Shown: piece by piece, positions 3,913 to 18,056 of the stretch
Position numbering within the stretch: position 1 is the first letter of the stretch
Layout: the number at the start of each line of letters is the position of its first letter
From: a virus
Lineage: Duplodnaviria; Heunggongvirae; Uroviricota; Caudoviricetes
Strand: one strand, 5' to 3'
DNA: 21,512 nt
IMG/VR virus record: IMGVR_UViG_2778261296_000007
Notes under the pieces: model-generated
Told to the model about the DNA's origin: nothing
Database searches by the model: none
Seen by the model: the letters and a program-made list of their open reading frames with translations, nothing else
Program-made: the position numbers and the translations under genes

Positions 3913-4372
3913 CCCACTTACTCACCAGTTCGCCATTGATATAAAGCTCCATCGGGCGGGTGACCGGCTCCGGCGGCGGAGGTTCCGGGATATTCTTCAC
4001 ATGCAGCGCACCGTCAACCTCACTGACCAGCGTGCGCTCGGTCAGCATCAGGCTGATACTGATATCAAAGCTGCTGTCATTGTTGATGTCTGCATAAAAC
4101 GTGAAGCCCTTTTTCTGGCCTTCGTCGGTGGTCATGATGTCGGGCTGATTTTCCCGCAGCCACGCCAGCACCGGCACGATGAGCAGGTCAAAATCACCGG
4201 TAAAGTCGGTCACAATCACATTGAGCGTGTAACGCTTTTCGAATGACAGCGACGTCGCCAGTGTGGAGGCAATACTCCCGTTATCCACGAATATCCGCAG
4301 CATCTCGGGACTGGTTTTCAGCACCGTGACGGCATCAGTCAGCGCCCTGCGCAGGCTGTCGGGTTTGAGCAT
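3905..4372 (-). CDS. R: Tail completion protein R
   Basis: 155-aa ORF (MLKPDSLRRALTDAVTVLKTSPEML...) in the P2 gpR position. Confidence 0.88.
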   Translation of the reverse strand: MLKPDSLRRALTDAVTVLKTSPEMLRIFVDNGSIASTLATSLSFEKRYTLNVIVTDFTGDFDLLIVPVLAWLRENQPDIMTTDEGQKKGFTFYADINNDSSFDISISLMLTERTLVSEVDGALHVKNIPEPPPPEPVTRPMELYINGELVSKWDE

Positions 4373-4625
4373 CGTTTTCGTCCTGACAGTGTTTAATCAT
4401 TTTTACCTGGCTGGCACAGCGTGCCAGCGCGTTCTCAAGCTGCCGGATATCGGCACTTAAATCGCCGTTCGTCTGCGGGTCACTGCCCGGCATCGGGCAA
4501 AGGCTCACTTTCGGGCAGGCGTTGGCGACAATCACTGGCGTCAGTGCAGGCCGGACGCTGGTGCAACCGGCGCACAGCATCAGGCAGGTCAGCGCCATAC
4601 CAGCGGCGAAAATCCTCGTTTTCAT
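4335..4625 (-). CDS. lysC: LysC, Rz1-like outer-membrane lipoprotein spanin, nested out of frame in the 3' part of lysB
   Basis: Internal start MKTRIFAAGMALTCLMLCAGC gives a 96-aa product with a lipobox-like LCAGC after a signal peptide. Embedded in a different frame of lysB, as in the P2 LysB/LysC arrangement. The track's 135-aa ORF (4335..4742) is the upstream extension of this frame. Confidence 0.75.
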   Translation of the reverse strand: MKTRIFAAGMALTCLMLCAGCTSVRPALTPVIVANACPKVSLCPMPGSDPQTNGDLSADIRQLENALARCASQVKMIKHCQDENDAQTRQPAQGAD

Positions 4626-4905
4626 TGAGTAACCTCGTGATAGTTTTCTCGCGCTGTGCTTCACGCTTCGCGGCGTTCTCCAGTTCCTGACGCAGTGCCA
4701 CCTGCGCCAGCTCGTTTTTGTCTGCCCTGGTGATGGCAACATGAAGCTGATTTTTCAGCATAGAGATAGTCGCCTGCTGTTCACTGGCGACGTTGCTCGC
4801 CCTGTCCAGTGAGGTGCGCAGGCTGGCGTTTTCATGCTTCGCCAGAAACAGACCGACCACCGCCAGTGATAACAACACAACCAGCACAATCATCAGCTTT
4901 GACAT
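4480..4905 (-). CDS. lysB: LysB, Rz-like inner-membrane spanin
   Basis: 141-aa ORF with an N-terminal transmembrane segment (MSKLMIVLVVLLSLAVVGLFLA) and a charged, coiled-coil-like remainder, in the P2 lysB position. Confidence 0.85.
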   Translation of the reverse strand: MSKLMIVLVVLLSLAVVGLFLAKHENASLRTSLDRASNVASEQQATISMLKNQLHVAITRADKNELAQVALRQELENAAKREAQREKTITRLLNENEDFRRWYGADLPDAVRRLHQRPACTDASDCRQRLPESEPLPDAGQ

Positions 4906-5318
4906 AGTTCCCGCCCCTCAAGACGCTGACGACAGGCTTTACGTATCAGCCGGAAAAACAGCGACGCCACAAGATAAATCAGCGCGGTAAAAATCCACCC
5001 GGCAGCGACCAGCGAGATAAACGTCGCCACCATCACCACCAGAGCCGCCGCCCGTCTGCGCCACGGCACCGGCTGCAAAAACAGCGCCGTGACAATCTTC
5101 ACGGCCAGCGATTCCGGCGGCAGCTCCCGCCCGTAGCGTTCCAGTACATACTCTGTGGCATACACGCCGACACCGCCGGCAACCACACAGATAACCGTCG
5201 CCAGAATCGCCCAGGCGGCGACAAAACTGACGGCCACGCTCTGAGGGTAAATCAGGGACAGTGCCAGCATCAGCGCCAGCGACACGTTCAGCATCAGTGA
5301 AAGGGATAATTTCTTCAT
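4893..5318 (-). CDS. lysA: LysA, membrane protein of the lysis cassette (lysis timing)
   Basis: 141-aa hydrophobic multi-TM ORF (MKKLSLSLMLNVSLALMLALSLIYP...) directly downstream of K, as in P2. Confidence 0.85.
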   Translation of the reverse strand: MKKLSLSLMLNVSLALMLALSLIYPQSVAVSFVAAWAILATVICVVAGGVGVYATEYVLERYGRELPPESLAVKIVTALFLQPVPWRRRAAALVVMVATFISLVAAGWIFTALIYLVASLFFRLIRKACRQRLEGRELCQS

Positions 5319-5332
5319 GGTGTTTACTCCGT

Positions 5333-5830
5333 TTAAGCCGGTACGCCGCCAGCGGTACGCCAGACGGTGACCAGTTTTTCCAGTGAATGCTCACGCTGAC
5401 CGTAACCGGCACCCGGCAGGGACGCCCAGATATTGCGACAGCGTGAAATGGCGCGCTCAATACGTCCCGCCCGGATGTCATCCAGTGCACCGCGTTCGCG
5501 GATCAACTGAATGGCAAGTCTGTCCTGTGACAACGGACTGAAATCCGGCAGGGCAAGCTGTTTGCGGTAATGCGGCCAGAACAGGTAAAGCTGCTGATAG
5601 CGACCGGAGGCCGTGGATTTTTCACCGCGACGGTTAAACACCTTCGCCGGTCGGCCATGCGCGAACGGGTGGTCACTGTAGTCGGTGAAAATTTCCGGCT
5701 TTCCGTCCAGTCCGGTGACTATCACGTCATAGCCCCGGTTTTTCGTCAGCGGATGATTCGCCGTCCCTTCGGACACGGCCAGCATGTCGAGAAAGGCGGC
5801 GATATTCTGATGCGTGTTAATTACCGGCAT
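5333..5830 (-). CDS. K: Endolysin K
   Basis: 165-aa ORF (MPVINTHQNIAAFLDMLAVSEGTANHPLTKNRGYDVIV...), typical of P2 gpK, with its start overlapping the Y stop. Confidence 0.9.
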   Translation of the reverse strand: MPVINTHQNIAAFLDMLAVSEGTANHPLTKNRGYDVIVTGLDGKPEIFTDYSDHPFAHGRPAKVFNRRGEKSTASGRYQQLYLFWPHYRKQLALPDFSPLSQDRLAIQLIRERGALDDIRAGRIERAISRCRNIWASLPGAGYGQREHSLEKLVTVWRTAGGVPA

Positions 5831-6111
5831 TACTGTTTCCCCCTGCCCTTAAAACGGCGCTGAATGGCAATCTCAATCACCTGATAACCGGCGATACCCA
5901 GCATGGAGCCGATGCCGCACACCGCAGGCAGCGACAGGTCAGGAAACTGCACCAGAACAACACCGGCAACCATCGAGACAAAACCACCGAGCAACATGCG
6001 CCCGATAAACAGACGCGGGGTGATGGGTTCACCACCGGCAAGCACCTTGCCGACAACAATCAGCACCCCAATCATGAAAAGCGACAGGACGCTTTTTTCT
6101 TCTGCTGTCAT
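5830..6111 (-). CDS. Y: Holin Y
   Basis: 93-aa ORF with hydrophobic TM segments and a basic C-terminus (RRFKGRGKQ), between X and K. Confidence 0.9.
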   Translation of the reverse strand: MTAEEKSVLSLFMIGVLIVVGKVLAGGEPITPRLFIGRMLLGGFVSMVAGVVLVQFPDLSLPAVCGIGSMLGIAGYQVIEIAIQRRFKGRGKQ

Positions 6112-6114
6112 GCG

Positions 6115-6318
6115 TTACTCCCACAGATTGACAGTTTCAGCCACGGGCGCGGTCTGAACGTCGGGCAGTTCGACGGCGGTGCCGTGTGGCAGCACCGCCC
6201 CCAGTTCAGCCAGTCCCGGATTTGCGGCGAGCACGGCCTCGACCACGCCCTCAGTGCGCCCGTAATATCGGACACAAATGGCGTCGAGCGTGTCGCCCTG
6301 TAGCGCAAAGGTCTTCAT
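6115..6318 (-). CDS. X: Tail protein X
   Basis: 67-aa product from internal start MKTFALQGDTLDAICVRYYGRTEG...; ATG at 6316-6318 overlaps the L stop. The track's longer 90-aa ORF (to 6387) runs back into L. Confidence 0.8.
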   Translation of the reverse strand: MKTFALQGDTLDAICVRYYGRTEGVVEAVLAANPGLAELGAVLPHGTAVELPDVQTAPVAETVNLWE

Positions 6319-6827
6319 CAGATTTGACTCACGATGCAGCGCGGCTTGTCCTGGATGCGCGCCACTGCCCAGCGCATATCCCGCCACAGCTCATCAATGG
6401 TGCTGTCTATGCTGTCGGCCTTTTTGTCGCCTTTCGCACTGGCATCCACACCGCGATAACGCTCATAAAGCGACGCGGTCGCCATCGCACACACGGCGCG
6501 CTCGTAGTAAAAAACTTTGATGCTTTCACCGTCGATGTCGTCCGCAGGGACGTCCGCCAGACGCGTAAAACCGGCGGCAATTTTCTGTTCGCGGTACTCG
6601 TACAGCTCCGCATTCGTCTCCGCCATGCCTGACTTGATGGCCTCACGCAGACGGGCGGGGGCGACGGTCTGCTCAAGGCGCATACGTTCCCGGACGCGCT
6701 TCGGGTCGATATCGGGAAAAAAGAACGTGTTTTTAATCACCGGCTCGTCGCCTGCCGGTTGCGGGATGACCACCGTACCCTCACCGGACACGGGAGCCTC
6801 CTTTCGCGGAATAATCAGCGTCATCAT
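6318..6827 (-). CDS. L: Head completion/stabilisation protein L
   Basis: 169-aa product from MMTLIIPRKEAPVSGEG..., matching the recalled P2 gpL length. The track ORF extends 20 codons further upstream (to 6887). Confidence 0.8.
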   Translation of the reverse strand: MMTLIIPRKEAPVSGEGTVVIPQPAGDEPVIKNTFFFPDIDPKRVRERMRLEQTVAPARLREAIKSGMAETNAELYEYREQKIAAGFTRLADVPADDIDGESIKVFYYERAVCAMATASLYERYRGVDASAKGDKKADSIDSTIDELWRDMRWAVARIQDKPRCIVSQI

Positions 6828-6926
6828 GACTACCTCTGAAAAGTCGGGCGGTGGACGCCGGTGCAGTGTCAGGTGATTCACCCTCACTGACCGGCGTGCC
6901 GCCCTGGCGCGGGGCGCATTCGGTTG

Positions 6927-7670
6927 TTAACTGGCTTTCTTTTTCGGGCGTCCACGTTTTGCCGGTGTCACGCTCCGGGTCTTACGCGTGGCACGGGTGG
7001 CCGCTTTGGGTTGCGGCTCCTGCTTCGGTTTCAGCTCCCGCTCCAGTCGTTCAATCTCTTTTTTGACGCCTGCCTGACAGTCGAGCTGTGTCGCACGTTG
7101 CAGGTGAGCCAGCGCACCGGCGGCATCACCACCGTCACGCAGAAACAGACCGGTGATTTTGTGCAGCTTTGCGCGCACTTCATCAGGCATGTCAGCAGCG
7201 GCAGTCAGTTCAAGGGTCTCCGTCAGCAGGCGGGGATCCACAGACTCACCGGCCGCGTGAGCGCGCATGGCCGCGAGCGCGACCTCCTCGGTGAACATGT
7301 ACGGCGGGGTGCGGCGGTGTTTACCCGGCATGGTCAGACCGTATTTCAGGGCATAACGGGCAATCTCCAGCGCACCGGCAATATCGCCGGTATCCAGACG
7401 CCACAGCATGACCGTCATCAGAATGTCATCCTGTGCGCCTTTGCCCTGCTCCAGCACGCCGTTCACCCACGGCAACCAGAACGGCAGCAGTTCGCGCTTT
7501 TTCGCGGCCTTCAGCTCTTTTGAATAAATCGCTTTCAGTGTGCGCTGGTCTGCGGCGAGCTTAACCAGCATCTGCTCATAGACAGTTGCATGTCGCAGCG
7601 GGGCGGCGTCCCGCTGCGCGGTCATCGCTGCCGAGACCCGCATCATGTGGCGCTGTGCGGGACTCGTCAT
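6927..7670 (-). CDS. M: Terminase small/endonuclease subunit M
   Basis: 247-aa ORF with a basic C-terminal tail (…TPAKRGRPKKKAS), matching recalled P2 gpM length and position next to N. Confidence 0.9.
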   Translation of the reverse strand: MTSPAQRHMMRVSAAMTAQRDAAPLRHATVYEQMLVKLAADQRTLKAIYSKELKAAKKRELLPFWLPWVNGVLEQGKGAQDDILMTVMLWRLDTGDIAGALEIARYALKYGLTMPGKHRRTPPYMFTEEVALAAMRAHAAGESVDPRLLTETLELTAAADMPDEVRAKLHKITGLFLRDGGDAAGALAHLQRATQLDCQAGVKKEIERLERELKPKQEPQPKAATRATRKTRSVTPAKRGRPKKKAS

Positions 7671-9660: not shown

Positions 9661-9833
9661 TGTCAGGAGTCCTGAATAGTGATTAGAGGAGTCACATGTC
9701 GGCATCAGTTTCCCGACGATGCGCATCCTCCGCCATCAGTCCCGGATGGCTTATCACTGACACAACAGCACCTTAGCGAATCGCGGGGCGCGACTCAGTA
9801 GCCTTGCCGTGTATTCATCACGGCGAGGTATTC
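9661..9833. promoter_or_regulatory. Divergent late-promoter region between O (leftward) and P (rightward)
   Basis: 173-bp gap between divergently oriented O and P starts. In P2 this interval holds the Ogr-activated late promoters. I found no perfect TGT-N12-ACA activator site by eye, so this call is positional. Confidence 0.45.
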
Positions 9834-11606
9834 ATGACCATCACCACAGACACCACTCTTTTACACGACCCGCGTCGTCAGGCGGCGCTGCTGTACTGGC
9901 AGGGGTTTTCCGTGCCGCAGATTGCCGCCATGTTGCAGATGAAACGCCCGACGGTGCAGAGCTGGAAACAGCGCGACAGCTGGGACAGCGTTGCCCCCAT
10001 CAGCCGTGTCGAAATGAGTCTGGAAGCGCGGCTGACCCAGCTCATCATCAAACCGCAGAAAACAGGCGGTGACTTCAAGGAAATTGACCTGCTGGGACGC
10101 CAGATTGAACGACTGGCACGGGTCAAACGCTACAGCCAGACAGGCAACGAGGCAGACCTTAATCCGAACGTCGCTAACCGCAACAAAAGCGGGCGGCGCA
10201 AACCGAAAAAGAATTTTTTCAGTGACGAGGCCATCGAAAAGCTGGAGCAGATTTTCTTTGAGCAGTCTTTCGAATATCAGTTGCACTGGTATCGCGCCGG
10301 GCTTGAGCACCGCATCCGCGATATCCTGAAATCCCGCCAGATTGGCGCGACGTTTTATTTTTCCCGCGAGGCGCTGCTGCGCGCCCTGAAAACCGGTCAT
10401 AACCAGATTTTTCTGTCGGCCAGTAAAACGCAGGCGTATGTGTTCCGCGAATACATCATCGCCTTTGCCCGTCTGGTTGACGTTGACCTGACCGGTGACC
10501 CGATTGTCCTTGGCAATAACGGCGCAAAACTGATTTTTCTTGGCACCAACTCCAACACCGCGCAGAGCCATAACGGCGACCTGTACGTCGACGAGATTTT
10601 CTGGATCCCGAATTTTCAGGTACTGCGTAAGGTGGCATCAGGTATGGCCTCACAGAGTCACCTGCGCTCGACCTATTTCTCCACCCCGTCCACGCTGGCG
10701 CACGACGCCTATCCGTTCTGGTCGGGTGAACTGTTTAACCGGGGACGCGCCAGTGCCGCCGAACGCGTGGAAATCGACGTCAGTCATAACGCACTTGCCG
10801 GAGGTCTTCTCTGTGCGGACGGCCAGTGGCGGCAGATTGTCACCATTGAGGACGCCCTGAAAGGCGGCTGCACACTGTTCGACATTGAGCAGCTCAAACG
10901 CGAAAACAGCGCCGACGATTTTAAAAACCTGTTCATGTGTGAATTTGTTGACGACAAGGCATCGGTGTTCCCGTTCGAGGAGCTGCAACGCTGCATGGTC
11001 GACACGCTGGAAGAATGGGAAGACTATGCACCATTTGCCGCCAATCCGTTCGGCTCCCGCCCGGTATGGATTGGTTACGACCCGTCACACCGTGGCGACA
11101 GCGCCGGATGCGTGGTGCTGGCACCGCCGGTGGTGGCCGGTGGCAAATTCAGAATACTTGAGCGTCACCAGTGGAAAGGCATGGACTTTGCCACCCAGGC
11201 GGAATCCATCCGCAAACTCACCGAAAGATATAACGTTGAATACATCGGTATTGATGCCACCGGCCTCGGTGTCGGCGTGTTCCAGCTCGTGCGCTCGTTC
11301 TATCCCGCCGCGCGCGACATCCGCTACACGCCGGAAATGAAAACCGCAATGGTGCTCAAGGCAAAAGACGTTATCCGCCGTGGCTGTCTGGAATATGACG
11401 TCAGCGCCACCGACATCACCAGCTCGTTTATGGCTATCCGCAAGACCATGACCAGCAGCGGACGCAGCGCCACCTATGAGGCCAGCCGCAGCGAGGAAGC
11501 CAGTCACGCCGACCTCGCCTGGGCAACCATGCACGCCCTGTTAAATGAGCCACTCACCGCCGGTATCAGCACTCCGCTGACATCCACCATTCTGGAGTTT
11601 TACTGA
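9834..11606 (+). CDS. P: Terminase large (ATPase) subunit P
   Basis: 590-aa product from MTITTDTTLLHDPRRQAALLYWQGFSVPQIAAM..., preceded by GAGG. The track ORF begins 10 codons earlier at 9804. Stop TGA overlaps the Q ATG (TGATG). Confidence 0.9.
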   Translation: MTITTDTTLLHDPRRQAALLYWQGFSVPQIAAMLQMKRPTVQSWKQRDSWDSVAPISRVEMSLEARLTQLIIKPQKTGGDFKEIDLLGRQIERLARVKRYSQTGNEADLNPNVANRNKSGRRKPKKNFFSDEAIEKLEQIFFEQSFEYQLHWYRAGLEHRIRDILKSRQIGATFYFSREALLRALKTGHNQIFLSASKTQAYVFREYIIAFARLVDVDLTGDPIVLGNNGAKLIFLGTNSNTAQSHNGDLYVDEIFWIPNFQVLRKVASGMASQSHLRSTYFSTPSTLAHDAYPFWSGELFNRGRASAAERVEIDVSHNALAGGLLCADGQWRQIVTIEDALKGGCTLFDIEQLKRENSADDFKNLFMCEFVDDKASVFPFEELQRCMVDTLEEWEDYAPFAANPFGSRPVWIGYDPSHRGDSAGCVVLAPPVVAGGKFRILERHQWKGMDFATQAESIRKLTERYNVEYIGIDATGLGVGVFQLVRSFYPAARDIRYTPEMKTAMVLKAKDVIRRGCLEYDVSATDITSSFMAIRKTMTSSGRSATYEASRSEEASHADLAWATMHALLNEPLTAGISTPLTSTILEFY

Positions 11607-12640
11607 TGAGCAAGAAAAAAGGGGAAACACCGCAACCTGCGGCAAAAAAAATGACCGCCAGCGCCCCGAAAATGGAGGCATTCACCTTTGGTGAGCCGGT
11701 ACCGGTACTCGACCGCCGTGACATTCTGGATTACGTCGAATGCATCAGTAACGGCAGATGGTATGAGCCACCAATCAGCTTTACCGGTCTGGCAAAAAGC
11801 CTGCGTGCTGCCGTGCATCACAGCTCACCGATTTACGTCAAACGTAATATTCTGGCTTCAACGTTTATCCCGCACCCGTGGCTGTCCCAGCAGGATTTCA
11901 GCCGCTTTGTGCTGGATTTTCTGGTGTTCGGTAATGCGTTTCTGGAAAAGCGCTACAGCACCACCGGTAAGGTCATCAGACTGGAAACCTCACCGGCAAA
12001 ATATACCCGCCGTGGTGTTGAGGAGGATGTTTACTGGTGGGTGCCGTCCTTCAACGAGCCGACAGCCTTCGCGCCCGGCTCCGTGTTTCACCTGCTGGAG
12101 CCGGATATTAATCAGGAGCTGTACGGCCTGCCGGAATATCTCAGCGCCCTTAATTCTGCCTGGCTGAATGAGTCGGCCACGCTGTTCCGCCGCAAGTATT
12201 ACGAAAACGGCGCACATGCCGGATACATCATGTACGTCACCGATGCCGTGCAGGATCGCAACGATATCGAAATGCTTCGCGAAAACATGGTTAAGTCGAA
12301 AGGCCGCAATAACTTTAAAAATCTGTTTCTCTATGCCCCGCAGGGGAAAGCCGACGGCATTAAAATTATCCCCCTCAGTGAAGTGGCGACGAAGGACGAT
12401 TTTTTTAATATCAAAAAAGCCAGCGCCGCTGACCTGCTGGACGCGCACCGCATCCCCTTTCAGTTGATGGGGGGCAAGCCGGAAAACGTCGGGTCGCTGG
12501 GTGATATTGAGAAAGTGGCAAAGGTCTTTGTCCGCAATGAGCTTATCCCGCTACAGGACAGGATCCGCGAGATAAACGGCTGGCTCGGTCAGGAGGTCAT
12601 CCGCTTTAAAAACTACTCACTGGACACTGACAACGGCTGA
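11606..12640 (+). CDS. Q: Portal (capsid vertex) protein Q
   Basis: 344-aa ORF (MSKKKGETPQPAAKKMTASAPKMEAFTFGEPVPVLDRRDILDYVE...), matching recalled P2 gpQ length. Confidence 0.95.
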   Translation: MSKKKGETPQPAAKKMTASAPKMEAFTFGEPVPVLDRRDILDYVECISNGRWYEPPISFTGLAKSLRAAVHHSSPIYVKRNILASTFIPHPWLSQQDFSRFVLDFLVFGNAFLEKRYSTTGKVIRLETSPAKYTRRGVEEDVYWWVPSFNEPTAFAPGSVFHLLEPDINQELYGLPEYLSALNSAWLNESATLFRRKYYENGAHAGYIMYVTDAVQDRNDIEMLRENMVKSKGRNNFKNLFLYAPQGKADGIKIIPLSEVATKDDFFNIKKASAADLLDAHRIPFQLMGGKPENVGSLGDIEKVAKVFVRNELIPLQDRIREINGWLGQEVIRFKNYSLDTDNG

Positions 12641-12645
12641 ACATC

Positions 12646-12667
12646 GCCGCCTGCGGGCGGCTTTTTT
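12646..12667 (+). terminator. Intrinsic terminator downstream of Q
   Basis: GCCGCC-TGCG-GGCGGC hairpin (12646..12661) followed by TTTTTT (12662..12667), 6 nt after the Q stop. Confidence 0.7.
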
Positions 12668-12809
12668 ACACCCCGTCATCACGCCCTCACACGCTCACCA
12701 CCGCACAAAACACCCCGCAGACACACCAACGCCTCAACGGGCAGACTAAGCGCCTTCACGACGCGCTCAGACGCTGAAAAAATAAAATCAGCACCACCGC
12801 CAGCGCGCA

Positions 12810-12828
12810 GTGCTTTCCCCGCCTCGCC
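12810..12828. other. cos cohesive-end sequence (P2-type 19-mer)
   Basis: gtgctttccccgcctcgcc is the reverse complement of GGCGAGGCGGGGAAAGCAC, which I recall as the P2 19-nt cohesive end. It sits between Q and the right-end accessory region, as expected in a prophage. Confidence 0.6.
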
Positions 12829-12921
12829 CGCCCGCTTCATGGGGCGGTTTTGATGCAACCTCGTATTAAAGGGGACACCATAGCCCATCAAACCTCAGAC
12901 TTCGCCCCTAGCTAACGTTTA

Positions 12922-12950
12922 TGAATGCAATGTAATGCAACTTAATGCAA
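12922..12950 (+). repeat. Three 10-bp-phased direct repeats of AATGCAA upstream of the cargo gene
   Basis: tgAATGCAA / tgtAATGCAA / cttAATGCAA at 12924-12930, 12934-12940 and 12944-12950, about 60-90 bp upstream of the 13012 ATG. Confidence 0.6.
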
Positions 12951-13011
12951 GTTATGGTAATGATAATTCTGCGTTAACAATTAAACTAATGTACCTGTAA
13001 GAGGATAAAAA

Positions 13012-15495
13012 ATGTCTGGTTTTTTCCTTGATTTAACCAAGCTTTCGCCCAGTGTAAATAGCGACACAGCGATTCCACCGCGAGATATATTTACAGCTCT
13101 ACCGAGCAAAGACACCAAATTTCAATACCCTCGAGATGTGCAATCAGAGGTCTGGGAAAAATGGTATGAAGCAAGGAGAAGCCCAACCAATGTAATAAAA
13201 ATGAATACCGGAAGCGGTAAAACTTCAGTTGGGTTAATCATTCTTAAAAGCTGTATAAATGAAGGAGAAGGTCCCGCTGTATATGTTGTTCCTGACAACT
13301 ATCTAGTTGAGCAAGTGGTTTTGGAGGCTAATCAACTTGGTATACCTGTAACTCAAGATGAGAGGTCCCCCAAATTTATTGCAGGTAAAGAAATTTTAGT
13401 TACAAATATATTCAAAGTGGTTAATGGACGTTCTGCATTTGGCGTTGGAGATGATGGACAAAAAATACCAATAGGTTCTATAATAATTGACGATGCTCAC
13501 GCTTGCCTTTCTTCAATTGAAGAACAATTCTCCATTAGCATTCAAAAAAATAACCCTGCCTATGATAAATTATTCAGAATTTTTGAAAATTCACTAATGA
13601 CACAAGCTGGTGCAAAAACACTAGAGATAAAATCCGGCGATAGAAATGCTTATGTGAGAGTTCCATTTTGGAAATGGCAAGAAAGCATAAATGATATAAT
13701 GACAATCTTGTTAGAAAATAAAGACCATGATGACTTGAGTTTCAAATGGCCATTAATAAAAGACAATCTAATATTATCGAAATGCGTTGTAAGTGCTTCC
13801 AAAATAGAGATATCACCTCATTGCATACCAATCCAAATGATCCCAAGCCTATCAAACGCAAGAAGAAAAATATTCATGACAGCTACTCTTGTCGATGAAT
13901 CCATTCTAGCGAGCCACTTCGGAATAACGGATGAATCACTCTCTAATCCGATAACACCAAAAACAATTGGTGATATTGGTGATAGAATGATACTAATGCC
14001 TCAGGTTATAAACCCTAGTCTTTCTGATGTAGATATCAAAGCTATGTGCAAGGAGATATCCTCCAAACATAATGTTGTTGTAATTGTACCATCCGATTAC
14101 AGAACTAGATTTTGGCAAGATGTTGCAGACAGAATATTAGATAAAAATACAATTTATCAAGGTGTACAAGAATTAAGGACACAACATGTTGGCTTAGTAG
14201 TCCTAGTTAATAGATATGATGGTATTGATTTACCAAATACCGCATGTCGTCTATTAGTAATAGATGGACTTCCTGACGTTCGTAGACTAATAGATAAAGT
14301 CTCACAAAGCTTATTGCTTGGAAGCGAAAAAACCAAAGATGAAATTATCCAGAAAATTGAACAAGGAATGGGGCGAGGAGTGAGATCAAGCGACGACTTC
14401 TGCGGAGTGATCTTACTTGGCAAAGCATTAAATGGCGCTGTTTTCCTTGGCTCCTCCTTAGAAAGGTTTTCTCCAGCAACGAAAGCACAAATTCAACTTT
14501 CACAGCAATTGGTATCGATACTGCCGGATACAACTATTGATTCAATCAAAGGTGCTCTTGATTATTGTCTGTTACGCAATTCTGACTGGGTCTCAAAAAG
14601 CAAAGGTATATTGACTGGCTTAACATTGGAAAATAAGCAGATTGACCAGCATACTATAAACAAAAGATTGGCATATGACTTAGCATCACGAAATATGTTT
14701 CAACAAGCCGCTTTAACTCTAAAAAATGATAGTAGCACAGCTGACAAAGTTTATAAGGGTTATCTAAAAGAACATGCTGCGGAATATGTAAACTTATATG
14801 ACAAATCTGAAGCTCAGATATTGCTTCAGTCTGCATCAAACGATAACTATCGGGTATTAAAACCACTAATCGGCGTAACATATAATAGACTTAATGGTGC
14901 GGCACTTGAACAGGCCAGGGAATGTAGCTCCTATCTCAGAAGTAATTTTGAATCGGCGAATCAAGTCGTTGTGCATACTAATTCAATAATAGAAAACCTT
15001 ATTTTCTCCGAGGGCACATCGAATCCCTTCGAAGATGCTATCGAAAAAGTTGCATATTTGGTCGGTTTTCGTAGCCAACGGCCAGAAAATGATACAGGTA
15101 AAGGACCTGACAATTTATGGGCAATGGGAGAAAACAATTATCTAGTAATTGAATGCAAAAATGGAGCAACCGCAGAAAGAATAAGTAAGCATGACTGCAA
15201 TCAGTTAAATGGGTCGGGTGCATGGTTCAGAAACATGTATGATCAAACTGCTACCGCCACACCTATAATGATACATCACTCTAATATGCCTGAATATGCC
15301 GCAACACTAAACGAAGGGTCTCGAATAATGACCATAAATGATCTTGAACGTTTTAAAGCATCTATCCTCAGTTTTATCACGGCCATTTGTACAAGTGATA
15401 AACGACACGATGAGATATTTATAAGAGAACAATTGATCACATGTAAATTACGTGCATCAGACATAGTTGAAACCTATACGCGAAACCCTCGTTAA
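13012..15495 (+). CDS. Cargo protein: SF2 (DEAD/DEAH-like) helicase fused to a C-terminal PD-(D/E)xK nuclease-like domain; candidate anti-phage defence protein
   Basis: 827-aa ORF with RBS AAGAGGA 6 nt upstream. Walker A NTGSGKTS (aa 65-72), motif Ia VPDNYLVEQ, motif II IIIDDAH (aa 158-163), motif III TAT (aa 290-292), motif V-like RYDGIDLP (aa 401-408), motif VI QGMGRGVR (aa 451-458). C-terminal E675...GPD700...IE714-C-K716 fits the PD-(D/E)xK pattern. AT-rich, unlike flanking phage genes. Confidence 0.85.
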   Translation: MSGFFLDLTKLSPSVNSDTAIPPRDIFTALPSKDTKFQYPRDVQSEVWEKWYEARRSPTNVIKMNTGSGKTSVGLIILKSCINEGEGPAVYVVPDNYLVEQVVLEANQLGIPVTQDERSPKFIAGKEILVTNIFKVVNGRSAFGVGDDGQKIPIGSIIIDDAHACLSSIEEQFSISIQKNNPAYDKLFRIFENSLMTQAGAKTLEIKSGDRNAYVRVPFWKWQESINDIMTILLENKDHDDLSFKWPLIKDNLILSKCVVSASKIEISPHCIPIQMIPSLSNARRKIFMTATLVDESILASHFGITDESLSNPITPKTIGDIGDRMILMPQVINPSLSDVDIKAMCKEISSKHNVVVIVPSDYRTRFWQDVADRILDKNTIYQGVQELRTQHVGLVVLVNRYDGIDLPNTACRLLVIDGLPDVRRLIDKVSQSLLLGSEKTKDEIIQKIEQGMGRGVRSSDDFCGVILLGKALNGAVFLGSSLERFSPATKAQIQLSQQLVSILPDTTIDSIKGALDYCLLRNSDWVSKSKGILTGLTLENKQIDQHTINKRLAYDLASRNMFQQAALTLKNDSSTADKVYKGYLKEHAAEYVNLYDKSEAQILLQSASNDNYRVLKPLIGVTYNRLNGAALEQARECSSYLRSNFESANQVVVHTNSIIENLIFSEGTSNPFEDAIEKVAYLVGFRSQRPENDTGKGPDNLWAMGENNYLVIECKNGATAERISKHDCNQLNGSGAWFRNMYDQTATATPIMIHHSNMPEYAATLNEGSRIMTINDLERFKASILSFITAICTSDKRHDEIFIREQLITCKLRASDIVETYTRNPR

Positions 15496-15734: not shown

Positions 15735-18056
15735 TTACTCTGAATAACCAGAAAACCCACTCCACTCATCTACACTAGGATATGAAAATTGCTTTTCATT
15801 GTAATTGACGATCGCACCGCGTACTAACGCCTCAAGCTCCCATCGCTGCGGCCTGATACCGTTTTGAGCAAGGTCAACACGGATACGGGTGATTTGCAAT
15901 CGTTCAGACCGGGTCAGTCTGGCCGATGGTGCAATTTCATGTGGTTTTAACGGGCTTCCGTTTCTTTGCTGACGACCTGGCGTTCTCCGACCGTGTTTTA
16001 ATGCACCCCTGAGCGCCCTCACGACCTCCGGGTCATTCCATTCGATAACACCGTCATCAACCAGATTTAGCACTGCTGCGGCGTGCTCAGAAGGTGTGGG
16101 AGCCGGTAACGAAGTATCACCACCGGTGAGCTTTCCACAGTTATTGACAGGACTCCGAGGCGCGGCGATGCCGCTTTTTAAAGTCAAAGGCTCAACGACC
16201 GGAACTTTCGGCACAATGCGCCAGTCCGTCGTTCTGGTGATATGAATATGACGCGCGCCGAGATGCGGCGCGTAAATGCCGACCACTCTCTCGACTTCTT
16301 CCTCGTATTCGTTAACGTCATCCGACGGGCTACGGGCGACCCTGACAGTCTGACAATCGCGCGGGACATTTGCCCCGCCCTGCGCGCTGATATACAGCGC
16401 AAAATCGCCACTGTCTGCGGCGGCGCGTGCAGCCTCCACGCGTTCGTCAAATTCATCAGCAATGCTGACGCCGCGAGGCAATTTACGTAGCTCACGGTAA
16501 GCTCCCATTGTCGGCAGGCCAACCGTTTTAAATTGCGGGATGCGCCACGTTGACGCCCATGCGGTAACAGCCGCCGCAGTATCTTTCAGCGGTCTGCCGG
16601 TATCGTTATCGAGCTGACCATCCAGTGCATAGCCGTCGATATTTTTTGAAATGTATTTCGCGATATATCCCGCAGCACCGCCCCGGTTAAGGTGTTTTGC
16701 CTGAAAACGGTTTCGCGCGGCTCCTCTTTCGTCGCCATCCTCTTTGAGCGCATAGCGATGCATGATTTCGATAATCTGGTTACGCTGGCGTGGATTACAA
16801 AAAAGCATCATATGCCAGTGCGGCGTTCCGTCGTGGTGTGGCTCGACGACTCGCAAACCGTAGACCTGTAAATCATTATCCTTGAATGCCGTGCGCATCA
16901 GGCTCCAGATACGGCAGAGATAACGCTGCGCATCCTTCGGATTAAATGCCTCATCATTCCAGCCGTGATTAAGCTGGACGGTTTTACTTTCGCCTTTTCC
17001 GACCTGACGTGTCGGGTGATACTTTGACGGCGCGGTCAGCGTGATAAACATCCCCACATCACCCTCTGCGGCGGCGTAACGCTCAATACCGGCAATGGTG
17101 TTCATCAGCTCCATCCGGCGAATTTCAGGATTAGAAATACTGCCCATCACCTTACTGATAAGGTCGATGCGCTCGCCGGTTTCCCTGTTTTCAAGGTCAC
17201 ACGATTTAAGAAATTCCAGATTTGCCTGGCGACGCGCACGCACATCACGAATGGCGTGTTTACTGGCATAAGGAGAACGGTCTTTATTGACCTCCCCGAC
17301 AGCTATCAGTAACGCTTCATGCCAGCGCATACGCTGGCCTTTAAGCTGATGAGTCCACCACTCATCGTTAAACAGACGGGCAATGGCAGAATATGCCTGC
17401 CTCGTGGTCATCTGCCCTTTACGGTATTTTTTCCAGTAGAGAGGGGAAATATTGAAAGCACGTGCAGCGCCAGCAACATGACCATACAGGTGAGCCTGCG
17501 CCTCATCCGTAAACAGTGATTCTTTTTCGCCATGCGCATCCACCCAGGCATCGCTGAGTTCCTCATACATCATGAAAAGCTGCGATGAGATACGGGCGGC
17601 AAACTTTTTCAGCTCCTTGTCATTCATTCCCGGCAGGCGCGCATAGTGGTCACGCTCTGCCAGAAACAGCAACGACGCGTCGGTGTTCATTTCATGGCGC
17701 TGATTCACACGCTCAATGCGCGGCCATAAACGACGCTGAAAAGTGGATGTGAGGAAATAAAACCCGTGTACCGGGCTTTTATTGCGCCGGATGTAGTCAT
17801 AGCGTGAAGTAAACAGCGAGCGCAAAAAGTAAGGCAGGCGGTTAATCGTGGATAAAACACCTTGCACCTGACGCATCTCGTCACGTGTAAGGGGTCTTTC
17901 GCGCCCGACAGCCTCGCGTGGCGCGTTCCATGCATAAGCACCGGTAAACGCCTTACCGGTGCCTGCGGCAAATGCTGACGGAGGGACAAAACGCCCGGAG
18001 GCTTTAACGGCCATATGAGCCAAAAGCCTCTGAACAACGCCTGCTGAGTTGCTCAA
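15735..18056 (-). CDS. A: Replication initiation protein A (HUH rolling-circle endonuclease)
   Basis: 773-aa ORF. Contains an HUH motif (TPHWHMMLF) and a Y-x3-Y active-site motif (GYIAKYISK). The likely true start is MAVKASGRF at 18014 (759 aa), as I recall for P2 gpA. Confidence 0.9.
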   Translation of the reverse strand: MSNSAGVVQRLLAHMAVKASGRFVPPSAFAAGTGKAFTGAYAWNAPREAVGRERPLTRDEMRQVQGVLSTINRLPYFLRSLFTSRYDYIRRNKSPVHGFYFLTSTFQRRLWPRIERVNQRHEMNTDASLLFLAERDHYARLPGMNDKELKKFAARISSQLFMMYEELSDAWVDAHGEKESLFTDEAQAHLYGHVAGAARAFNISPLYWKKYRKGQMTTRQAYSAIARLFNDEWWTHQLKGQRMRWHEALLIAVGEVNKDRSPYASKHAIRDVRARRQANLEFLKSCDLENRETGERIDLISKVMGSISNPEIRRMELMNTIAGIERYAAAEGDVGMFITLTAPSKYHPTRQVGKGESKTVQLNHGWNDEAFNPKDAQRYLCRIWSLMRTAFKDNDLQVYGLRVVEPHHDGTPHWHMMLFCNPRQRNQIIEIMHRYALKEDGDERGAARNRFQAKHLNRGGAAGYIAKYISKNIDGYALDGQLDNDTGRPLKDTAAAVTAWASTWRIPQFKTVGLPTMGAYRELRKLPRGVSIADEFDERVEAARAAADSGDFALYISAQGGANVPRDCQTVRVARSPSDDVNEYEEEVERVVGIYAPHLGARHIHITRTTDWRIVPKVPVVEPLTLKSGIAAPRSPVNNCGKLTGGDTSLPAPTPSEHAAAVLNLVDDGVIEWNDPEVVRALRGALKHGRRTPGRQQRNGSPLKPHEIAPSARLTRSERLQITRIRVDLAQNGIRPQRWELEALVRGAIVNYNEKQFSYPSVDEWSGFSGYSE

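Follow-up and report, generated by a model that had tools for sequence, protein, structure and literature searches.

A phased AATGCAA triplet beside a prophage cargo gene is part of the right flank of P2/P4-type cos sites and a putative terminase recognition array

Introduction

In phage lambda, the cosB segment carries the R3-I1-R2-R1 sites, with binding of the small terminase gpNu1 and a bend introduced by IHF, and termination of packaging depends on cosQ, an element located upstream of cosN. For full function of the P2 cos site about 125 bp are reportedly needed. A deletion study of the P2/P4 cos was reportedly carried out by Ziermann and Calendar in 1990 and is said to have arrived at a 55-bp core.

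The cos of P2/P4 is given in published accounts as this 55-bp core (PMC5694545, PMC9594776), and the cos region is the only one that P4 and P2 share (PMC9122126). Longer flanks around the core increased cosmid transduction 11,597- to 50,828-fold, a gain that concerns whole short vs. long packaging signals and not any boxes specifically; the cause of these gains of more than 10,000-fold was not known to that study (PMC9594776). An accessory hotspot has been defined between gpA and gpQ (PMC9122126).

Here we describe a stretch of 21,512 nucleotides of viral DNA (IMG/VR record IMGVR_UViG_2778261296_000007), referred to below as the window. Its 19-nt cohesive end and the core around it are those of the P2/P4 cos, and like that site they lie between gpQ and the old/tin hotspot. 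The cos of the papers cited above is the 55-bp core, whereas an array of three AATGCAA boxes in the window lies 40-65 bp outside of it. A first-pass annotation had described these boxes as a regulatory element of the neighbouring cargo gene; our comparative analysis relates them to cos instead.

Results

Layout of the window and the cos core

The window is a P2-like prophage in reverse orientation, and is called P2-like because a P2-type cohesive end (12810-12828) is found between the portal gene gpQ and gpA. The features used in this work are as follows.

6927-7670, minus strand: small terminase gpM (Pfam Phage_term_smal, E = 2e-47)
9804-11606, plus strand: large terminase gpP (Pfam Terminase_5, HTH_23, Terminase_6N and Terminase_6C), with an N-terminal HTH at residues 22-79
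11606-12640, plus strand: portal gpQ, 3′ end toward cos (Pfam Phage_portal; phage record annotation)
12803-12857, no strand: conserved cos core of about 55 bp, with GCGC, the cohesive end, an inverted repeat followed by a T-run, and the proximal box
12810-12828, no strand: 19-nt cohesive end (cosN) of P2 type, GTGCTTTCCCCGCCTCGCC, by direct sequence reading
12853-12858, plus strand: proximal ATGCAA box, starting at the 25th base past the cohesive end
12859-12923, no strand: spacer from the proximal box to the array, fixed in length and free in sequence
12924-12950, plus strand: distal array of three direct AATGCAA boxes, its position conserved in P2/P4-type cos sites
12962-12967, plus strand: GATAAT, the best -10-like hexamer (putative cargo promoter), by sequence reading
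13012-15495, plus strand: cargo gene, AT-rich, for an 827-AA SF2 helicase-family protein (PADLOC PDC-S28; Pfam ResIII, DEAD and Helicase_C_2)
15735-18056, minus strand: replication endonuclease gpA, far edge of the cos-proximal cargo hotspot (Pfam Phage_GPA, E = 2.5e-123)

The GC-rich cohesive end GTGCTTTCCCCGCCTCGCC is the reverse complement of the P2 end and matches the cohesive ends of P2, P4 and 186. The annotated cosL terminus of the P2 record AF063097 aligns at window position 12828, with 96% identity over the flank, and the order portal gpQ - cos - cargo - gpA fits the location of cos in the P2 family. The core (12803-12857), which includes the inverted repeat CCGCCC...GGGCGG at 12828-12847, is kept across 112 phage records and the IMG/VR sample described below; its mean information content is 1.34 bits, as compared to 0.09 bits for the spacer (47 thinned loci). 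BLAST homology with other P2-like phages runs to 12857 and then ends. As homology stops at this point and the spacer is not conserved, the array is taken for cargo-specific DNA in BLAST comparisons.

The inverted repeat of the core (12828-12847, CCGCCCGCTTCATGGGGCGG TTTT) also has an intrinsic-terminator-like score on the strand reading out of the portal gene. Besides this one, a second terminator-like hairpin is present at 12646-12661, at the equivalent of an annotated terminator.

The AATGCAA triplet in the window

Direct reading of the plus strand confirmed exact AATGCAA copies at 12924-12930, 12934-12940 and 12944-12950. The 10-bp phasing that had been pointed out for them was recovered by Tandem Repeats Finder (period 10, 2.7 copies, 12924-12950), and the array lies 62-88 bp from the cargo ATG (13012), in agreement with the earlier estimate of 60-90 bp. 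The word itself is not enriched, with 5 copies in the 21.5-kb window vs. 5.8 expected. Its arrangement is rare: this is the sole triple 7-mer of the window for periods of 8-30, a phased triplet at period 10 occurred in 0 of 2000 first-order Markov simulations, and one at any period between 8 and 30 in 2 of 300.

Two features had not been noticed in the first-pass annotation. One is the P2-type cohesive end, past which the array spans nt 97-122; the ATGCAA starts within the array (12925, 12935 and 12945) are the 97th, 107th and 117th base past this end. The other is a fourth ATGCAA copy (12853-12858), which lies within the conserved cos core. We also observed that a near-identical prophage (L094, IMG/VR 2698536401_000016) has four AATGCAA units at 2924-2959, the equivalent of window 12924-12950; this expansion by an exact 10-bp unit indicates that slippage can alter the copy number.

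The array is found at the same distance from cos in P2-type phages and P4-type satellites

A scan of IMG/VR with the bare pattern ATGCAA-N4-ATGCAA-N4-ATGCAA recovered more P2-like contigs, with the triplet beside the portal gene and with cargo unrelated to PDC-S28. Neighbours of the array include Old/Tin in P2, Septu PtuA/PtuB (L140), PADLOC Hp1/Hp2 (L093) and PDC-S28, and in two loci (L095 and L189) an AbiL-like gene pair converges on it. With neighbours as unrelated as these at one and the same offset, the repeat goes with the position near cos and not with the cargo gene.

To have a sample unselected for the repeat, 120 viral contigs were collected with the cos-core pattern CCCCGCCNCGCCNGCNCNCTT, which does not contain it, and gave 108 distinct right flanks. 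Positions were counted from the first C of CCCCGCC (window 12817), so that +108, +118 and +128 correspond to window 12925, 12935 and 12945, i.e., the three array copies. ATGCA piled up at +36, the offset of the proximal box in the window, in 104 of the 108 flanks, at +107 to +109 in 53, at +117 to +119 in 76 and at +127 to +131 in 85. All three slots of the array were filled by ATGCR in 78/108 flanks and at least two in 98/108, as compared to a background of 0.013 per slot; about 10 flanks had one box or none. Among the loci with mutually unrelated downstream 60 bp, 66 of 89 had two or three slots filled. The IMG/VR sample behind these counts is phylogenetically structured, and the result survives thinning. 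All three boxes were present in each of the clear P4-like satellites (9/9).

The same arrangement was seen in reference elements. Starts of ATGCR, given as the nth base past the cohesive end, are listed below in the order proximal box, then array boxes.

Window: 25, 97, 107, 117
P2: 25, 97, 107, 119
186: 25, 97, 107, 120
PSP3: 25, 97, 107, 116
Wphi: 25, 96, 106
Satellite P4: 25, 97, 107, 120

The window thus conforms to a definition of the array as three direct ATGCR boxes at about nt 97, 107 and 116-120 together with a proximal one at nt 25. In 186 the array is placed between the p95 transcript terminator and cos, and in P4 the 3′ end of psu comes next; in neither setting is there a gene for the array to drive. 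The sequence records of P2, 186, PSP3 and P4 carry no annotated feature for these boxes, and a literature search, with the 1990 primary cos paper lying outside it, returned no cosR or terminase-binding repeats for P2-like phages. The array is conserved and fixed in position on the right side of cos in P2/P4-type elements, and it is independent of the cargo.

The spacer is fixed in length and free in sequence

The proximal box and the first array box were 71, 72 or 73 bp apart in 29 of 29 ATGCA-type loci, which had been thinned to unrelated spacers (mean pairwise identity of 0.28, about random). A spacer that is fixed in length and free in sequence points to a structural constraint tying the array to the cos core, and its roughly seven helical turns would suit looping or wrapping of the DNA. 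Ungapped information content anchored on the core was tried as a statistic for the array and found to be weak (0.15 bits for the array vs. 0.09 bits for the spacer), because box positions jitter by 1 bp and the word types are mixed; this element is better described by slot occupancy and by the distribution of distances.

The spacer of many P2-like and P4-like cos sites (L211, L214 and P4, L327, among others) contains a GC-rich inverted repeat such as GCCCGCCAG-N4-CTGGCGGGC; in P4 it reads CCGCGCC-GGGAAT-GGCGCGG. No such repeat is present in the window (12859-12923), P2 and Wphi. It might terminate transcription that converges on cos, or have a structural role.

Box words and the candidate reader

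Distinct cos loci were compared by a phased-word test, in which a 5-mer recurring at 9-13 bp was searched for at +98 to +142 and the same word then looked for in a proximal window at +28 to +56. A phased 5-mer was present in 113 of 129 distinct cos loci, and in 101 of these 113, a set dominated by related ATGCA-type loci to which a divergent GC-rich clade had been added, the distal word recurred in the proximal window; the counts in control windows were 1 for the spacer and 7 each for the DNA past the array and to the left of cos. The proximal word changes together with that of the array in loci of the GTCGG type (3/3) and the GTGCR type (3/4). Exact identity of the two words was seen in only one of six loci of the TGACG type, and GATCC-type arrays retain an ATGCA proximal box (0/3 co-variation). 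The GATCC type is represented by three IMG/VR contigs (L215, L310 and L314), which carry three or four phased GATCC(T) boxes at +100 to +145 from the cos core. The co-variation of proximal and distal words is thus real but partial, and as a pattern in sequences it favours a phage-encoded, co-evolving reader.

We also compared the protein identities of gpM, gpP-N, gpP-C and the portal with the array word type. None of them tracked it: the non-ATGCA clades are all about equally distant in the gpM/gpP comparison, and the ATGCA word is kept down to about 40% gpP-N and 37% gpM-N identity. Such a comparison does not discriminate between gpM and gpP as the reader of the boxes and was given up for this purpose.

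The cargo gene and its relatives

The PADLOC PDC-S28 profile matches the cargo protein with E = 0 and 1055.5 bits over residues 6-825 of 827, and by this full-length match the gene is a candidate defence system PDC-S28. Two sets of genomes were considered for a comparison of its upstream DNA and dropped. The region was found in 70 of 5426 E. coli genomes, all with at least 99% identity, and these carriers are too clonal for a conservation test; species-representative genomes yielded only cargo homologues of at most 56% identity. Graded relatives of the cargo protein were retrieved instead, and their loci were obtained by exact-protein look-up.

Two P2-type prophages among these, L084 (90% protein identity) and L085 (82%), have kept three ATGCAA boxes at period 10, although the bases between and around the boxes differ from those of the window. 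Boxes are invariant between lineages at 82-90% protein identity while spacers and flanks differ, a pattern that points to selection on the boxes. The array and its flanks are conserved in all four PDC-S28-carrying P2 lineages and the spacer has diverged. Outside of P2 phages, no array was found upstream of the PDC-S28 homologues of L086 (81%) and L087-L089 (80%), whose upstream DNA is entirely unlike that of the window. The expectation that the repeat would be conserved upstream of homologous cargo genes thus fails, as it is absent both from the tra region of L086 and from the islands of L087-L089.

The homologue in L086, an ENA metagenome scaffold, lies at 4001-6490 in a conjugative tra cluster, between TraU and TraC, and those in L087-L089, from Pectobacterium, lie at 4001-6490 in tyrosine-integrase islands (identities of 80-81%, L086 included). 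From its occurrence in tra, integrase-island and phage contexts, this single-gene candidate system moves among phages, conjugative elements and integrative elements. In L084 (Logan SRR1814406 contig) PDC-S28 is followed, at 6548-7631, by SocA_Panacea-domain and DUF2975-like genes, both of which the window lacks.

Minor variants were observed upstream of the gene. In E. coli strain 219 (L001, NZ_CP020514.1) a copy of the IS21-family element ISEc12 (istA/istB) is inserted at the window equivalent of about 12990/12991, between the box array and the ribosome-binding site of the cargo, and the array stays beside cos; PDC-S28 is thereby cut off from any promoter near the array. In E. coli 6EVA and CB7286 (L002 and L003) the run between the Shine-Dalgarno sequence and the ATG (window 13006-13011) is A7 instead of A6, a 1-bp change of the SD-start spacing for the cargo.

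Candidate promoter sequences upstream of the cargo

Terminator-like hairpins follow the portal gene and are present in the cos core, and a promoter of the cargo must therefore lie between cos and 13012. A sigma-70 promoter scan of 12500-13200 returned 0 sites at the scan threshold. Two candidates picked by hand, GATAAT (12962-12967) and ATGATA-16-TAAACT (12960-12987), were both below this threshold. The old-tin starts of P2 would map to about 12977-12979 in the window, downstream of GATAAT. A possible Fur box overlapping GGTAATGATAAT at 12956-12967 was rejected, since at least 13/19 matches were reached in 398 of 500 shuffles and the site is not among the window's best.

Discussion

A proposed role in packaging

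In our reading, the AATGCAA triplet is probably the distal box array of a P2-family cos, putatively used in terminase recognition, and is not specific to the cargo. The cos site would then be bipartite, with a core of about 55 bp that includes the proximal ATGCA box and three ATGCR boxes 71-73 bp further on. The boxes may be recognition sites of the terminase, with gpM and/or the N-terminal HTH of gpP as candidate readers. The fixed spacer would let protomers bound at the two sites, proximal box and array, cooperate by looping or wrapping of the DNA, and the cooperating protomers could position or stabilise the terminase at the nick sites. P4-type satellites are packaged by the terminase of their helper, and this would be why they retain the array. 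Support for a terminase role is indirect and comes from the sharing of the array by helper and satellite, its fixed geometry, the partial co-variation of the words and the effect of flank length on cosmid transduction (PMC9594776). Since the cargo hotspot begins just past the array, the promoter of the first cargo gene is probably adjacent to the last box or shares bases with it, as Pold of P2 does.

A further-reaching version of this proposal is speculative and, in our judgement, has less than an even chance of being right. It holds that efficient packaging requires the distal array, that one terminase domain recognises both this array and the proximal box, that the box word (ATGCA, GTCGG, GTGCR, TGACG and others) sets packaging specificity and thereby the satellites open to mobilisation by a helper, that the last box doubles as the -35 element of the first cargo gene, and that terminase bound late in infection could occlude the promoter of the defence gene.

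Alternative readings

The first-pass annotation had taken the repeats for a cooperative regulator-binding array, or a UP-like or curved promoter element, that may control the defence gene. On this regulatory interpretation, a transcription factor binding to the phased boxes, or a UP-like or curved-DNA effect of the boxes themselves, would set the expression of the first hotspot gene, here PDC-S28, from the prophage. The array does lie 62-88 bp upstream of the cargo ATG with GATAAT following it, the hairpins at 12646-12661 and 12828-12847 separate transcription of the cargo from that of the portal, and the four PDC-S28-carrying P2 lineages keep both array and flanks. Moreover, in P2 the third box is overlapped by a -35-like TTGAAT, well placed for Pold, and is followed after 25-27 nt by the annotated starts of the old-tin transcript. 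Nevertheless, PDC-S28 homologues of similar divergence in the tra region and the integrase islands have no array, while arrays at the same offset are found where there is no outward transcription: in L095/L189 the neighbouring genes converge on the array, in 186 it lies behind a terminator, and in P4 it adjoins the psu 3′ end. The position of the array is also fixed to cos and not to start codons: the distance from the first box to the first cargo start codon is 87 nt in the window, 136 nt in L093 and 208 nt in L140, and a promoter has no reason to be in register with the cos nick. A promoter role cannot be the conserved function of the array, and we regard the regulatory interpretation as quite unlikely, with a secondary overlap of array and cargo promoter, as at P2 Pold, being possible. 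The part of the earlier proposal that stands is that of a phased protein-binding array, which is very probable given that boxes are kept and spacers and flanks drift; the regulator or UP-like role does not stand with it. Control of the defence gene is unsupported as a primary function, the array being absent at non-P2 PDC-S28 homologues and present beside unrelated or convergent genes, and the sigma-70 scan of 12500-13200 having returned no site.

Alternatively, the boxes could be a cis element shared by P2 and P4 for some other DNA transaction at the right end, not terminase recognition. For example, a host nucleoid protein or a bending protein might bind there, the end that is packaged last might be held at the portal or tail, or the ends might be protected or circularised after injection. 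The presence of the array on the right-end side, in helper and satellite alike and at a fixed distance from the end, would suit such an element, and the combination of a GATCC-type array with an ATGCA proximal box would be consistent with two separate readers. On the other hand, the proximal copy lies inside the cos core, beside the nick sites, the several box words across phage clades are easier to reconcile with a co-evolving phage-encoded reader than with a conserved host protein, and the terminase is the only protein known to be functionally common to P2 and P4 at cos (PMC9122126). We consider a right-end element of this kind unlikely. Replication slippage in the AT-rich cargo DNA could have left a tandem repeat without function, and would account for a copy number that varies, as in the four units of L094. 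It would not account for boxes that are kept though the bases between them differ, for a position conserved within 1 bp across phages with unrelated flanks, or for three slots filled in 78/108 loci against a background of 0.013 per slot; the comparative data effectively refute slippage as the explanation, and we give it almost no weight. Recognition by the terminase is the reading followed below.

Comparison with known systems and significance

As judged from its sequence and position, the array is an accessory repeat array of the cos site, for which lambda cosB seems to be the nearest functional analogue. Both consist of several short repeated boxes within about 100 bp of the nick site, in an arrangement that, by analogy, would suit cooperative binding with bending. 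They have no sequence similarity, however, and the P2-family element is made of three tight direct repeats plus a proximal copy at a fixed spacer; no IHF-like site or conserved motif was found in the spacer (0.09 bits), which sets the element apart from cosB of lambda proper. The array is located on the right-end side of the P2 cos, which we take to be the last to be packaged; lambda cosB lies on the side that is packaged first. Given this presumed polarity, the array would be more cosQ-like (termination) than cosB-like (initiation), and a termination role is equally possible by analogy. If P2 is packaged from left to right, as we assume, the array shares with lambda cosQ the side of the nick site that the terminase reaches first at the end of packaging. 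It differs in being a phased array about 100 bp away, as cosQ consists of one short element near cosN. UP elements and phased regulator arrays, e.g., the tandem Cox boxes of P2, likewise place short direct repeats, spaced by about one turn of the helix, ahead of a gene, but the P2-family boxes are unlike the A/T-tract UP consensus or the Cox-box word and track cos, not promoters.

For the annotation of P2-like prophages, the first 125 nt or so past the cohesive end should be assigned to cos, and neither to the cargo nor to its promoter. Boundaries of the hotspot and regulatory motifs called within this stretch are otherwise misread, as happened with the AATGCAA triplet. Should packaging require the array, the P2/P4 signal would be more than twice as long as the usual 55-bp core, and the variable box word could determine the specificity between helper and satellite. 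P2/P4 cosmids and transducing particles use cos fragments of arbitrary length, and the array is a candidate cause of the flank effect noted in the Introduction.

Finally, two loci bear on how cargo modules are exchanged next to cos. In L099 and L180 the cargo and 154 bp upstream of it match the window at 99.8-100% identity, as against only about 77% for the portal-cos region, and the switch in identity falls within the 19-nt cohesive end. From these sequences the cos core appears to be the left recombination anchor for exchange of hotspot modules, which would explain why the array looked cargo-specific. With an anchor at this place, the array would travel with the cargo module, though functionally it probably belongs to cos.
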